In this document: piece after piece, positions 52,426-55,178 of the stretch | Position numbering within the stretch: position 1 is the first letter of the stretch | How the letters are laid out: every line of letters begins with the position of its first letter | NCBI GenBank assembly: GCA_051958655.1 | Contig: JBQCFW010000114.1 | Location: 8,319-72,318, forward strand | DNA from: Agriterribacter sp. | GTDB taxonomy: Bacteria; Bacteroidota; Bacteroidia; Chitinophagales; Chitinophagaceae | Direction of reading: 5' to 3' | DNA: 64,000 bases | Translations under genes and position numbers: made by a program | The notes under the pieces: model-generated | The model's database searches: none | Told to the model about the DNA's origin: nothing | What the model saw: only the letters and a program-made list of their open reading frames with translations

Positions 52426-53055
52426 ATGATGAATATACTTCCATTTGACGGAGAAGCTTTTTTATACAAAAATATTTTTCCTGCTAACGAGAGCGACAGC
52501 TATTCTACGTTGCTTGCAGCCAACATTGCATGGAAGCAAGAAGCAATTGTACTATTTGGCAAAAAAGTAATGCAGCCAAGACTTACTGCTTTGTCTGGAG
52601 ATGCTGGCAAAGCCTACCGGTATTCGGGCATTACCATGCATCCTTTACCATGGAACGGGGAACTGATGGAAATTAAAACCAGGGTGGAAGAATTGTGCGG
52701 GCATCAATTTTCTACCGCATTGCTGAATTATTACAGGAATGGACAAGATAGCATGGGATGGCACCGTGATAATGAAAAGGAATTGGGCATGAACCCTGTA
52801 ATTGCTTCTGTAAGTTTTGGTGCTGAAAGAATATTCCAGTTCCGCCACTACAAGGAAAAAAGCAATGTTCAATCTGTGCTGCTCACGCATGGAAGCCTAT
52901 TGCTGATGCAGGGAGCCACGCAACATTGCTGGTATCACCAATTACCCAAAACAAAAGTGAGCATGGGAGAGCGGATCAACATTACTTTCCGGCAGATACA
53001 GGGCGAGACAGGCTCCGCCAAAGATAAAATACAAGATAGCTTTCCCACCCGCTGA
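52426..53055 (+). CDS. alkB: AlkB-like (ALKBH2/3-type) 2OG-Fe(II) dioxygenase
   Basis: QPRLTA, LLNYYRNGQDSMGWHRDNE (HxD), WYHQLPK, RINITFR. Confidence 0.9.
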   Translation: MMNILPFDGEAFLYKNIFPANESDSYSTLLAANIAWKQEAIVLFGKKVMQPRLTALSGDAGKAYRYSGITMHPLPWNGELMEIKTRVEELCGHQFSTALLNYYRNGQDSMGWHRDNEKELGMNPVIASVSFGAERIFQFRHYKEKSNVQSVLLTHGSLLLMQGATQHCWYHQLPKTKVSMGERINITFRQIQGETGSAKDKIQDSFPTR

Positions 53056-53896
53056 ATTGTTTGAACAGTTTTTCGATCTTGCCTGCTTCTGCTCTGCTTT
53101 GTATGAGGTTGAGGGCTGTTAAGGCATTCAGCAGTCCTATATCACCCACAGGAATAGCGTTCGCATCCCTCATCGTTTTCATCAGCACATAATTAGCGGT
53201 CCATGTGCCAATGCCTTTAAATTGTGTTAATGCCAGTTGTCGGCTTTTAAAATCGGGCAGTGCCGAAAGTTTTTCCTTGCTTATTTCCCCGTTTACAAAG
53301 GCTTTTGCCGTGCCTATAATGTAATTGGCTTTGCTGCTCGAAAACTGCATTTTTTTCAATGCTTCCGGATCAAGTTGCGCCAACGCCTGGGGCTCGGGAA
53401 AAATATACAAAGGTTCGTTGTTGAAATGAAGTGTGGTACCATAGGCTTCGGTTAGCCGTCGTTTAAGTGTATAGGCAAATTTCAGGTTGATCTGTTGCCC
53501 CGTAATGCTCCATATCAGCGCTTCAAACAAATCGGGAATACCTACGGCGCGCAATCCCCAAAAGTCGTTTTGCATATGTGCCAGGCGTTTGTTTTTTCCA
53601 AGCAACCGGTAAAAAGGAGCGAGGTCTCTTTGCAGGTCGAACCAGTCTGTTATATACACTCCAACATCGTTCATCACTTCTTTACTCAAAGCATTGCCGT
53701 ACGCTGTAGCTTCAATATGATTGTTGTTGGTGCTTACAGAAATAACAAGGTTTTGATTATGGATGCGAACAGCTTTAATAACACTTTCAGCTTGCAGGCG
53801 GTGCATACAATCATCATAATTCCGGTTAAGGAACCACAAACACTCTTTAAAACTGAATAACGGTGGAAGGGGAAGGGTAAGCGTAACAGAATTCAT
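52982..53896 (-). CDS. alkA: DNA-3-methyladenine glycosylase II
   Basis: AlkA_N-like start; ITGQQINL, HhH-GPD KGIGTWTANY...PVGDIG. Confidence 0.88.
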   Translation of the reverse strand: MNSVTLTLPLPPLFSFKECLWFLNRNYDDCMHRLQAESVIKAVRIHNQNLVISVSTNNNHIEATAYGNALSKEVMNDVGVYITDWFDLQRDLAPFYRLLGKNKRLAHMQNDFWGLRAVGIPDLFEALIWSITGQQINLKFAYTLKRRLTEAYGTTLHFNNEPLYIFPEPQALAQLDPEALKKMQFSSSKANYIIGTAKAFVNGEISKEKLSALPDFKSRQLALTQFKGIGTWTANYVLMKTMRDANAIPVGDIGLLNALTALNLIQSRAEAGKIEKLFKQFSGWESYLVFYLWRSLSRPVSAGK

Positions 53897-53950
53897 CGGG
53901 CAAAATTACCATACTTCTCGGATGGATTGAAATCCATCCTTACATATGTG

Positions 53951-54040
53951 ACCGAGCCTACGGTTCTGCCTCGTCACAAAGAGCCAGAGCCGTAGGCTCG
54001 ATTTAATATGGCCGCCTGGGATTTTAATCCCAGCTTAAAG
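53951..54040. repeat. About 90-bp REP-doublet-like element, family 2
   Basis: CGAGCCTACGGTTCTG...CAGAGCCGTAGGCTCG, then GCCTGGGATTTTAATCCCAGCTTAAAG; second copy at 57798-57886. Confidence 0.85.
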
Positions 54041-54041
54041 G

Positions 54042-54473
54042 CTAAGGCGCTTCTATACTAATGCCTTCATGCACCAGTTCCATGGTTTCTATAGCCACTT
54101 CGTTGGCATCCGCTTTTAGGTCGGAAGATTGCAGCTTGCAGGGCCATGCATTTTTTATTTTCCATACCCGTACCGGTTCGTGCGCTTCGTTCAGCAGTTT
54201 TATCAAAACGTCCCTGCGCTCTACCTGGTTAAGCGATATGGAGTTGAACCAGTTGAAAAAATCGTTATCGCTTTTTGTTACACCCCGCTTTAATATGATG
54301 TTGGTAAATTTTCGAAGTCCCGGCATTTTGATGGCTGAAGATTCGGGGGCGCTTCCTTCGCGGTACTCCACCACCTGGTGTTCCATGCCAAGCCCGGATA
54401 CCTCGGTGAAACCAATATTGTTGCCTCCCCATTCCACAATAAAATGACTAACAGGCAAAGGATACTTTCCCAT
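54042..54473 (-). CDS. Phage-tail tube protein, T4 gp19/Afp1-Afp5 (contractile injection system) family, orphan
   Basis: YPLPVSHFIVEW, FTEVSGL, EYREG, KMPGLRKFTNIILKRG, NAWPCK, EVAIETMELVHEG; start MGKYP at 54473. Confidence 0.92.
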   Translation of the reverse strand: MGKYPLPVSHFIVEWGGNNIGFTEVSGLGMEHQVVEYREGSAPESSAIKMPGLRKFTNIILKRGVTKSDNDFFNWFNSISLNQVERRDVLIKLLNEAHEPVRVWKIKNAWPCKLQSSDLKADANEVAIETMELVHEGISIEAP

Positions 54474-54570
54474 AATAAAAGCAGTTAAATGTTTAAAATA
54501 AACCCGGATTTTCGGCGTCATGTCACTGGTAAGATAAAAAACGTTTGGCGGTTTTGGAAGAGGTATTTAG

Positions 54571-54612
54571 GATTTATGATTTATGATTTATGATTTGTGA
54601 TTTTTGATTTGA
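54571..54612. repeat. Heptamer tandem array (GATTTAT/GATTTGA)
   Basis: Six degenerate 7-mers. Confidence 0.8.
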
Positions 54613-54737
54613 GATCGAGAGATGTCTGCCCGTTCACTTCTGCCTGCTTTTCTTTTATCTTTCACTTTTCACTTCTGATAGCTGCCCGCTGCCCGAAATG
54701 CCAGGCACAGTAACATGTGATTGCACGGGAGGTTTGT

Positions 54738-55022
54738 TTAAGAATGTTTTTTTTCTGAGTGCCCAAGGTCTTTGGCAGGGTTTACAATATCGCGCACCAG
54801 TTGTTTGAGTTCTTTTATTTCGGGGAAGCGACCTTCTGTTTTCCGGTCGAAGATCATTTTGTCATCTATATATACAGTGTAACGCCCGGTTGTTTCCGAA
54901 GGAAGCAGTGTTACACCCTTTATATCTTCAGCAAAAGTAGTAAGCAGCTCCTGCGCCATATAGGCAGCGCGAAGCATCCAGCCACATTTGGGACAATATT
55001 CAATTTGTATCGTTTTTTTCAT
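54738..55022 (-). CDS. SelT/SelW/SelH (Rdx) family protein, Cys form
   Basis: IEYCPKCGWMLRAAYMAQELL, GRFPEIKELKQLVRD. Confidence 0.9.
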   Translation of the reverse strand: MKKTIQIEYCPKCGWMLRAAYMAQELLTTFAEDIKGVTLLPSETTGRYTVYIDDKMIFDRKTEGRFPEIKELKQLVRDIVNPAKDLGHSEKKHS

Positions 55023-55178
55023 GTAAAATATTTTTGGTGATGGGTTATCAGCAGAGGTAAGATGAAAAGTCAAAAGTTAAAAATGAAAGGTTGATGCCGG
55101 GGTTTTAATTTTTAAATATGTTGTTTCTAGTACTTCTTGTCCGAAAGCTGACGGCTGAAAGCTGATAGCTTATGCGTT

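Follow-up and report, generated by a model that had tools for sequence, protein, structure and literature searches.

What might a single inner-tube gene of a contractile injection system (CIS) be doing in a bacterial genome that encodes no other recognizable part of such a machine? This question is raised by the window analysed here, a 64-kb stretch of contig C114 (JBQCFW010000114.1) from the 6.6-Mb, 224-contig Agriterribacter sp. assembly GCA_051958655.1 (completeness 99.2%), in which an intact tube gene stands by itself among unrelated genes. To our knowledge, CIS tube proteins have been regarded solely as components of the whole machine, and a literature search found no description of such solitary tube proteins. 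By using profile searches of the whole genome and comparisons with related genomes, the context, relatives, selection and start site of this gene were characterized. On balance, the reading favoured is of a protein that has been reused and is probably tethered to a membrane, forming rings or tubes and doing its work in the absence of a contractile machine.

The open reading frame (ORF) at 54042-54473 on the reverse strand is intact, comprises 143 residues and begins with MGKYPLP. Its product matches Pfam family PF06841 (Phage_T4_gp19) with E=2.7e-49 and 166.9 bits (cut-off 28.2) over 130 of the 134 profile positions, and TIGR02241 with 144.9 bits (cut-off 62.4), which agrees with an earlier note on this DNA that had proposed an intact tube gene of the gp19/Afp type. 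In phmmer comparisons with structures of the Protein Data Bank (PDB), the protein matched Alg1 of AlgoCIS (7adz, E=1.9e-62) and All3324 of the Anabaena thylakoid-anchored CIS (7b5h, E=3.5e-59), Pvc1 and Afp1 (6j0b and 6rao) at E of about 6e-29, and the adaptors Pvc5 and Afp5 at 9e-12 and 1.4e-10, respectively. Because these scores are far better for tube than for adaptor subunits, the assignment could be narrowed to the Cis1/Afp1-type inner tube, as opposed to the Afp5/Cis5 type. The NCBIfam equivalog cut-offs for CIS1 and CIS5 were missed by the window tube and by genuine operon tubes alike, and thus say nothing on membership. An AlphaFold2 (AF2) model of the 143-residue form shows a beta-barrel with one helix (H69-80) at a mean local confidence (pLDDT) of 77.7. 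The GC content of the gene (45.3%, versus 43.9% for the genome) represents native composition.

The remainder of the machine was sought throughout the genome. PF06841 has a single match in the whole genome, leaving no second tube paralogue beside tube1, and the sheath family PF04984 has zero matches genome-wide. When a complete Paraflavitalea eCIS (extracellular CIS) operon (L015, with its sheath, tube1, tube2, CIS_tube adaptor, VgrG, gp25 and gp6/J) was used as a tblastn query against the genome, the tube alone was matched. Custom hidden Markov models (HMMs), built for each part from approximately 50-95 operons (95 sequences for the sheath), detected no sheath, CIS_tube adaptor (PF19266), VgrG spike, gp25 or gp6/J in the six-frame genome translation, and a 25-sequence sheath profile (A1) likewise found nothing in this genome. 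TssC/VipB (PF05943), the sheath of type VI secretion systems (T6SS), was found neither here nor in 17 other lone-tube genomes, with E. coli as a positive control, and gp25/TssE (PF04965) was not found in this genome, with genomes G005 and G265 as positive controls. Moreover, no sheath could be found in the sister species (G320) or in two further members of the genus (G326 and G324) that carry the same lone tube; since these independent assemblies likewise have none, an assembly gap is unlikely. Thus, among the sheath, adaptor, spike, gp25, gp6/J and TssC genes searched for, the tube is the only contractile-system gene of the genome. It belongs neither to an eCIS or T6SS-iv locus (no sheath, no baseplate or spike, no tube2 or adaptor) nor to a T6SS of types i-iii (no PF05943). 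The absence of sheath, baseplate and spike genes from the 64 kb, which the earlier note had pointed out, is therefore extended to the whole genome by Pfam, tblastn and custom HMMs, and its suggestion of a trans-acting alternative tube for a distant locus is excluded for this genome, in which no sheath, baseplate, spike or T6SS gene is found at 99.2% completeness.

Solitary tube genes are not restricted to this genome. A survey of relatives covered the best 80 loci, with one genome per species. Canonical operons accounted for 76 of them, with the order sheath-tube1-tube2 and then adaptor, VgrG, gp25 and gp6 where the contig reaches, and the tubes encoded by these operons show 61-67% identity to the window tube. 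The other four loci lie outside operons and include the three closest matches overall (97%, 73% and 70% identity), the fourth being 65% identical. The sister species (G320, locus L002) has a 97% identical tube in the same synteny. In a 301-genome sample of Chitinophagaceae, a tube match was detected in 95 genomes and a sheath match in 91; no sheath was present in 18 of the 95 tube-positive genomes, most of which are at least 98% complete. Examination of 17 fetched lone-tube regions revealed no further CIS part within about 8 kb, apart from a tube1-tube2 pair in G261 (L135, G261:C181:378-1270); this pair lies at a contig start, and the next 8 kb hold no adaptor, spike or baseplate gene. Among the 33 genomes of the genus, nine have a lone tube as their sole tube (67-97% identity to the window tube), and 12 have operon tubes, recognized by tube1 adjoining tube2 (48-64% identity), with sheath profile matches in all 12. 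The two kinds never occur together in one genome. Some loci are kept across species: genes for phosphofructokinase (PFK) and pyruvate kinase directly precede the lone tube in G112, G226, G119 and G233, and these four, together with G150 and G254, share GH20 hexosaminidase and NagB/PIG-L-type neighbours, three genera being represented in all. In G048, G326, G184 and G303, a 225-aa gene just upstream of the tube encodes a Pr6Pr-family membrane protein, the homologue of which lies on another contig in this genome.

Phylogenetic trees with operon-encoded tubes, an analysis that the earlier note had recommended, were built. In a 128-row tree, the lone-tube label required five changes, compared with a mean of 22 when labels were shuffled, and starred branches joined the window tube first to L002 and then to other lone tubes of the genus. 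In a 75-row tree, a starred branch (95) united all 22 extension-bearing lone tubes (the N-terminal extension is described below) and one other sequence. When these 22 tubes were constrained to one clade, the likelihood was above that of the free tree (p-AU 0.79), and thus they fit one clade apart from the operon tubes sampled. The nearest operon tubes on the trees come from outside the genus. Together, these comparisons show what appears to be a distinct lone-tube subfamily of Cis1/Afp1-type tubes in Chitinophagaceae, which would have split long ago from the operon-encoded eCIS tubes. Further lone tubes, at L122 (G081), L125 (G105) and L128 (G117), have no hydrophobic extension, with N-termini such as MPNNEPGNWP; they group with tubes of proteobacterial operons on the tree, which suggests a separate origin.

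The lone tube is subject to strong selective constraint. Between the window and the sister species, dN is 0.012 and dS 0.316, giving a dN/dS of 0.038, and the tube domain shows 28 nucleotide differences, 23 of them at third codon positions. Seven neighbouring genes yielded dN/dS values of 0.032-0.18 in the same comparison, and other close lone-tube pairs 0.04-0.10. Identity falls to 67-75% in deeper lone-tube pairs of the genus, for which dS is saturated, indicating that the gene has been solitary since before the divergence of these species. The orthologues are thus intact rather than decayed, and synteny shows no eCIS locus next to the gene, contrary to what would be expected of the remnant of a recently deleted locus, a possibility that the earlier note had named as fatal to its proposal. 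These data show that the lone tube is mostly vertically inherited, is under strong purifying selection and persists in genomes without any other CIS part.

A feature that sets the lone tubes apart is found at their N-termini. Upstream of the canonical MG/MA start, the reading frame remains open for a median of 26.5 codons in 28 lone tubes versus 5 codons in 128 operon tubes, and an in-frame ATG occurs at a conserved position across the lone-tube clade (ATG 54521 in the window, where the ORF list includes a longer frame beginning with it). The extension, which is present in lone tubes and not in operon tubes, comprises 16-19 basic and hydrophobic residues or, in sister groups, a membrane-spanning helix. 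All extension peptides collected in Table 1 carry a net charge of +3 or +4, are free of acidic residues and show an amphipathic pattern, and a common motif, [FY]-x-K-x-L-[IT]-x-x-[IL]-M-G, is written in differing codons. At the corresponding position, the sister groups G069/G091/G105 and G117/G231 have 20-25 hydrophobic residues followed by lysine, as in a membrane-spanning helix. Several observations argue against a mere AT-rich untranslated leader. Among the codon changes that the extension shows in the three closest independent pairs, five of six are synonymous in its frame, compared with one of six and one of seven in the other frames (P=0.005); locus L191 writes the motif with GC-containing codons (CGC ATC CGT AGA ...); and the isoleucine and arginine codons of the extension vary between lineages while the residues are unchanged. 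Some gene callers also give forms of 159-162 aa. On balance, it is quite likely that the extension is translated, and the gene probably starts at ATG 54521 rather than 54473. Thus, of the gene bounds in the earlier note (54042-54473), the intact reading frame stands, and the start more likely lies at ATG 54521, giving a protein of 159 aa.

The region upstream of the longer start also appears to be constrained. A promoter-like box akin to the Bacteroidota -7 element TAnnTTTG is located 6-7 nt upstream of the ATG in each of the lineages examined, not only in the window but also in G317, G326, G048, G324, G303, G184, G308, L191, G103, G150, G117 and G231. It reads TATCTTAC in the window, G317 and L191, TATCTTCA in G048, G326, G303, G184 and G308, TACCTTCA in G324, TACTTTTA in G103, TAACTTTC in G150 and TATCTTTT in G117/G231. 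With this spacing, transcription would start at the ATG or immediately before it and yield a leaderless or near-leaderless mRNA, and such an mRNA would favour the long form; the box may accordingly be regarded as a candidate promoter of the tube gene. In addition, a 122-nt block around the short start (-73 to +49) has no difference from the sister species, compared with 16% of third codon positions differing elsewhere in the tube domain. This block matched no Rfam family, and its folding stability is not out of the ordinary (z=0.56); a constrained promoter and initiation region would explain its invariance. The proposed subfamily, defined by solitary context, membership of the clade and a basic-hydrophobic or membrane-spanning N-terminal extension behind a -7-like box, would include the window tube.

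The tube domain itself retains the features of its family. All 28 positions that are invariant in a 38-sequence tube alignment are kept in the window tube, so that hexameric rings or short stacks are probably still formed. Some residues that 90% or more of the operon tubes have in common are replaced in the clade of the window tube, among them K8V, F9S, K47A, F66T and S92K. K8V and F9S lie in the N-terminal arm before strand 1, and K47A in the 39-47 hairpin loop, where E44 and Y45 are variable too. The N-terminal arm and long hairpin of tail tubes contribute to ring-to-ring contacts. This pattern fits a protein in which the fold is kept, the ring is probably kept and fit to a sheath, initiator or cap is no longer required.

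Several known systems offer points of comparison. All3324 is a close sequence relative and provides an example of an intracellular, membrane-attached CIS. The thylakoid CIS of Anabaena is a complete machine that is anchored via its baseplate, whereas the window tube is alone and any anchoring would run through its own N-terminus. Afp1 and Pvc1, from the Serratia Afp and Photorhabdus PVC particles, are more distant members of the same family, which are encoded in operons and act within a sheath. In the T6SS, orphan hcp genes are tube genes away from the main cluster, in genomes whose T6SS uses them, and Hcp represents a different sequence family; unlike those genomes, the window genome has no T6SS sheath (PF05943) or gp25/TssE (PF04965). 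Alg1 of AlgoCIS from Algoriphagus machipongonensis (7adz) and the operon-encoded Cis1 tubes of clade Ib eCIS from Bacteroidota have the same fold and family as the window tube, which differs from them in having no adjoining sheath, tube2, adaptor, spike or baseplate genes and in its N-terminal extension. The N-terminus of Alg1 is even shorter than that of Pvc1/Afp1 (PMC8894135).

Table 1. Features of the solitary tube locus, extension peptides of related lone tubes and lone sheath genes of relatives (positions in the window unless a locus is named).
Feature	Position	Strand	Description
Probable full solitary tube gene	54042..54521	-	159 aa; stop codon 54042-54044; 16-residue extension and Cis1/Afp1-type tube domain
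Tube domain	54045..54473	-	143 aa, MGKYPLP...; PF06841
N-terminal extension (putative; peptide before canonical start, this window)	54474..54521	-	MTPKIRVYFKHLTAFI; 16 residues, net charge +3, no acidic residue, amphipathic
Promoter-like box	54529..54536	-	TATCTTAC; 7 nt upstream of ATG 54521; 6/8 match to Bacteroidota -7 consensus TAnnTTTG
Invariant block	54425..54546	-	122 nt; zero differences vs G320/L002; covers box, extension and first 16 tube-domain codons
alkA-like HhH-GPD DNA glycosylase	52982..53896	-	Downstream neighbour; Pfam; no injection-system link
Rdx/SelW-like redox protein	54738..55025	-	Upstream neighbour; PF10262 (E=1.2e-29), TIGR02174; no injection-system link
REP-like composite (repetitive extragenic palindromic)	53897..54041		Three hairpins; 145 bp, tube stop to alkA start; inverted repeat 53943-54010
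Heptamer array ATTTATG	54565..54615		About 6.6 copies; upstream of tube gene; Tandem Repeats Finder (TRF)
Deletion junction	54686..54695 (~54690/54691)		Pairwise alignment with G320
Peptide before canonical start, G048			MLLRARHYFKYLIYFL
Peptide before canonical start, P0008			MMHWLQRIRRFVNSLIKRI
Peptide before canonical start, P0027			MRIIRFIKHLIRCI
Peptide before canonical start, G150			MKLLHLITAFFKKIIHQI
Peptide before canonical start, G112			MKFFHSLIHFIKRLIRY
Peptide before canonical start, G103			MGLLKTILHCVKKTINRL
Lone sheath, G048	L112:10177-11388		
Lone sheath, G303	L181:9658-10866		
Lone sheath, G317	L177:9346-10764		
Lone sheath, G069	L187:9345-10841		
Lone sheath, G231	L188:9462-10943		
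Lone sheath, G184	L114		
Lone sheath, G254	L116		

Further analysis of the relatives identified sheath genes that are solitary as well. These lone sheaths (397-499 aa, PF17482) have no other CIS gene within about 9 kb, and the lone tube of the same genome is on another contig or far away. In G048, G184 and G303, a minimal lone sheath of 403 aa is situated between genes for an adenine deaminase and an M20 peptidase, far from the tube, and in G317 a 473-aa lone sheath is 212 kb from the lone tube. A fifth lone sheath of the genus, in G308, is cut off where its contig ends and lies next to a weak match to the gene that precedes operon sheaths. The same arrangement of lone sheath and lone tube occurs in other genera (G254, G069 and G231); gp25 (PF04965) was not found in G048 or G254. 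In the window genome, an unrelated 280-aa gene occupies the adenine deaminase-M20 locus, with no sheath remnant, and G326 has no sheath though its tube is 96% identical to that of G048. Because the constraint was measured on a pair of species that both have no sheath, and because the tube is kept more widely than the sheath, the constraint on the tube is independent of the sheath.

On these grounds, a mechanism may be sketched for the reading favoured above. The conserved -7-like box would drive an mRNA with a short leader or none, on which translation would begin at ATG 54521, and the 16-residue basic amphipathic N-terminal peptide would tether the tube protein to the cytoplasmic membrane, where the tube domain would probably still form hexameric rings or short stacks. 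The changed N-terminal arm and the 39-47 hairpin loop would reflect that there is no more need to fit a sheath, initiator or cap. Of the two roles that the earlier note had suggested, the stand-alone tube with a new role is thus the one that gains from the evolutionary evidence, namely constraint, a single clade, conserved loci across genera and a specific extension, and the trans-acting subunit is not.

Several points weigh against this reading or call for caution. Membrane binding and oligomerisation are predicted from the character of the sequence and by analogy with the sister groups that carry membrane helices. The trees are unrooted and based on 141 columns, and the long lone-tube branches stand against very uniform operon tubes, so that long-branch effects on the clade are possible. 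The locus varies within the genus, with alkA and SelW-like genes flanking the tube here and in G320 and an acetyl-CoA hydrolase gene beside it in G048, G326, G184 and G303, and all-against-all clustering found no neighbour gene common to all 25 lone-tube loci that could serve as a functional pointer. No exact TAnnTTTG is present in the upstream intergenic region of the tube, and no -33 element is shared among the lineages. The remaining points concern the start codon and would suit a different protein, a soluble, Hcp-like cytoplasmic ring of 143 aa translated from ATG 54473, with the 48 nt upstream serving as a 5' untranslated leader and the free hexamer acting, for example, as a chaperone or carrier. 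Starts in Bacteroidota prefer an A at -3 and an AT-rich upstream stretch, and ATG 54473 has both, its upstream region being unstructured; most gene callers, including that of NCBI, annotate the 143-aa form; the AF2 model of the 159-aa form gives the extension a pLDDT of 30-35 with no confident helix; and in distant pairs the extension changes are mostly non-synonymous, the variable sites of the clade being spread evenly over codon positions (11, 11 and 10). On the other hand, the frame-specific synonymous changes in close pairs, the GC-containing codons of L191, which no AT-rich artefact would produce, the fixed distance between box and ATG in many lineages, and the hydrophobic membrane helices at the same place in sister lone tubes are not expected of a leader. 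A soluble ring is hence considered rather unlikely.

Apart from the soluble ring, three further explanations of a solitary tube gene have to be considered. The tube might be the leftover, with reduced or no function, of a dispersed two-gene module whose sheath was lost here. Such a module is suggested by lone sheaths of 403-473 aa in four of the nine lone-tube members of the genus, with a fifth in G308, by those in the three genomes from other genera, and by the syntenic adenine deaminase-sheath-M20 arrangement of G048 and G303 at a locus that holds no sheath here. However, the dN/dS of 0.038 comes from two species that both have no sheath, so constraint continued, the sheath-less G326 keeps a nearly unchanged tube, and many lone-tube genomes of the family are sheath-less, all of which makes a functionless leftover improbable. 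It is very unlikely that the gene is in decay, left over from an eCIS operon lost not long ago and still intact by chance. In favour of this, eCIS operons occur commonly in the genus (in 12 of 33 genomes), lone and operon tubes are mutually exclusive there, and lone tubes sit on longer branches than operon tubes. Against it, the purifying selection on the tube is as strong as that on its housekeeping neighbours, the lone-tube clade is deep within the genus, with saturated dS, none of the lone-tube loci fetched has a CIS fragment next to the gene, and the operon tubes nearest to it come from outside the genus. Least probable of all, and hardly credible, is a trans-acting subunit of a contractile system elsewhere in the genome that is too divergent to recognize or missing from the draft: with 224 contigs an accessory locus could in principle sit in a gap, but Pfam, tblastn and custom profiles recovered no sheath, adaptor, spike, gp25, gp6/J or TssC, the assembly is nearly complete, and three more independent lone-tube assemblies are likewise without a sheath.

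The reuse of the tube as a membrane-tethered protein might extend beyond this species. It is tentatively proposed that in Chitinophagaceae, and probably other Bacteroidota, the inner tube has been reused as an independent, membrane-anchored structural protein, held by an amphipathic peptide or a membrane-spanning helix and in some species paired with a lone sheath; together, these might make up a ring, conduit or filament that lies at the cytoplasmic membrane, injects nothing and has no need of a baseplate, spike or ATPase. What makes the locus of general interest is that a tube protein is held at housekeeping-level constraint across the family, in machine-less genomes, with an added piece resembling a membrane anchor. 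If confirmed, this would stand as a clear example of a cell putting part of a phage tail to a new use, and would offer a simple one-gene system, or a two-gene system with the lone sheath, for initiator-free tube polymerisation and other uses of rings. It also has a practical side, since gene-calling pipelines name lone tubes "phage tail protein", and such labels can yield false prophage or eCIS calls in Bacteroidota genomes.

A prophage contractile tail or a recent phage origin was also considered as a source of the gene and rejected, as the best phage match has 34% identity and the neighbours are DNA-repair and redox genes. No relatives of the tube were found in viral contigs, and PADLOC matched neither the tube nor the lone sheath nor the genes around them to a defence system.

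The flanks of the tube gene were examined as well. Its position between alkA and a SelW-like gene, as described in the earlier note, is borne out by Pfam, and farther neighbours include alkB-like, AHSA1-like, aminotransferase and helicase genes. Of the 12 members of the genus that were tested for the alkA-like gene, only G320 has it. The REP-like element and the heptamer array that the same note had seen at the two sides of the gene do exist, and both belong to genome-wide families that are not specific to the tube. Two flanking intergenic queries gave 112 blastn-short matches, and those examined were all to the 3' REP-like element, whose core motifs GGATGGATTGAAATCCATCC, CCGTAGGCTCG and CTGGGATTTTAATCCCAG occur as exact copies 8-39 times in the genome, often in composite clusters, the family being dispersed over dozens of sites; the element is kept in G320, with paired changes in one stem. 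TRF identified 581 period-7 arrays in the genome (approximately 88 per Mb), with varied units and in intergenic positions, as well as many arrays of period 14 and 21. In the window, period-7 arrays occur at about seven sites, including 5626, 6409, 38115, 54565, 57901 and 60707. As both repeat types are genome-wide, the flanking repeats were ruled out as a signature of mobility. In G320 (L002:9050-9760), about 700 bp more are found between the SelW-like gene and the tube, of which only a 5' stub is left in this genome; the extra segment apparently holds a gene for a signal-peptide-bearing protein that was lost here.

Other CIS-related genes were observed in the family. A second, very divergent tube type (38-43% identity) occurs beside a sheath of 537-603 aa in L120 (G281:C1:180000-199900), G314, G178, G170, G044, G180, G190 and G094, and probably represents a different CIS class; at the G281 locus a gp25 gene is about 14 kb away, and G178 has a tube of the divergent type without an adjoining sheath. 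In addition, 14 genomes of the family have a sheath match and no tube match at E<=1e-5, with full-length sheaths in G064, G078, G158, G181, G247, G277 and G298; these would be either eCIS types whose tubes have diverged or further lone sheaths. Close to the tube gene, an exact TAATTTTG box is present at 53901-53908 on the reverse strand, 4 nt upstream of the alkA start codon (ATG 53896), and its position suggests a leaderless alkA transcript.

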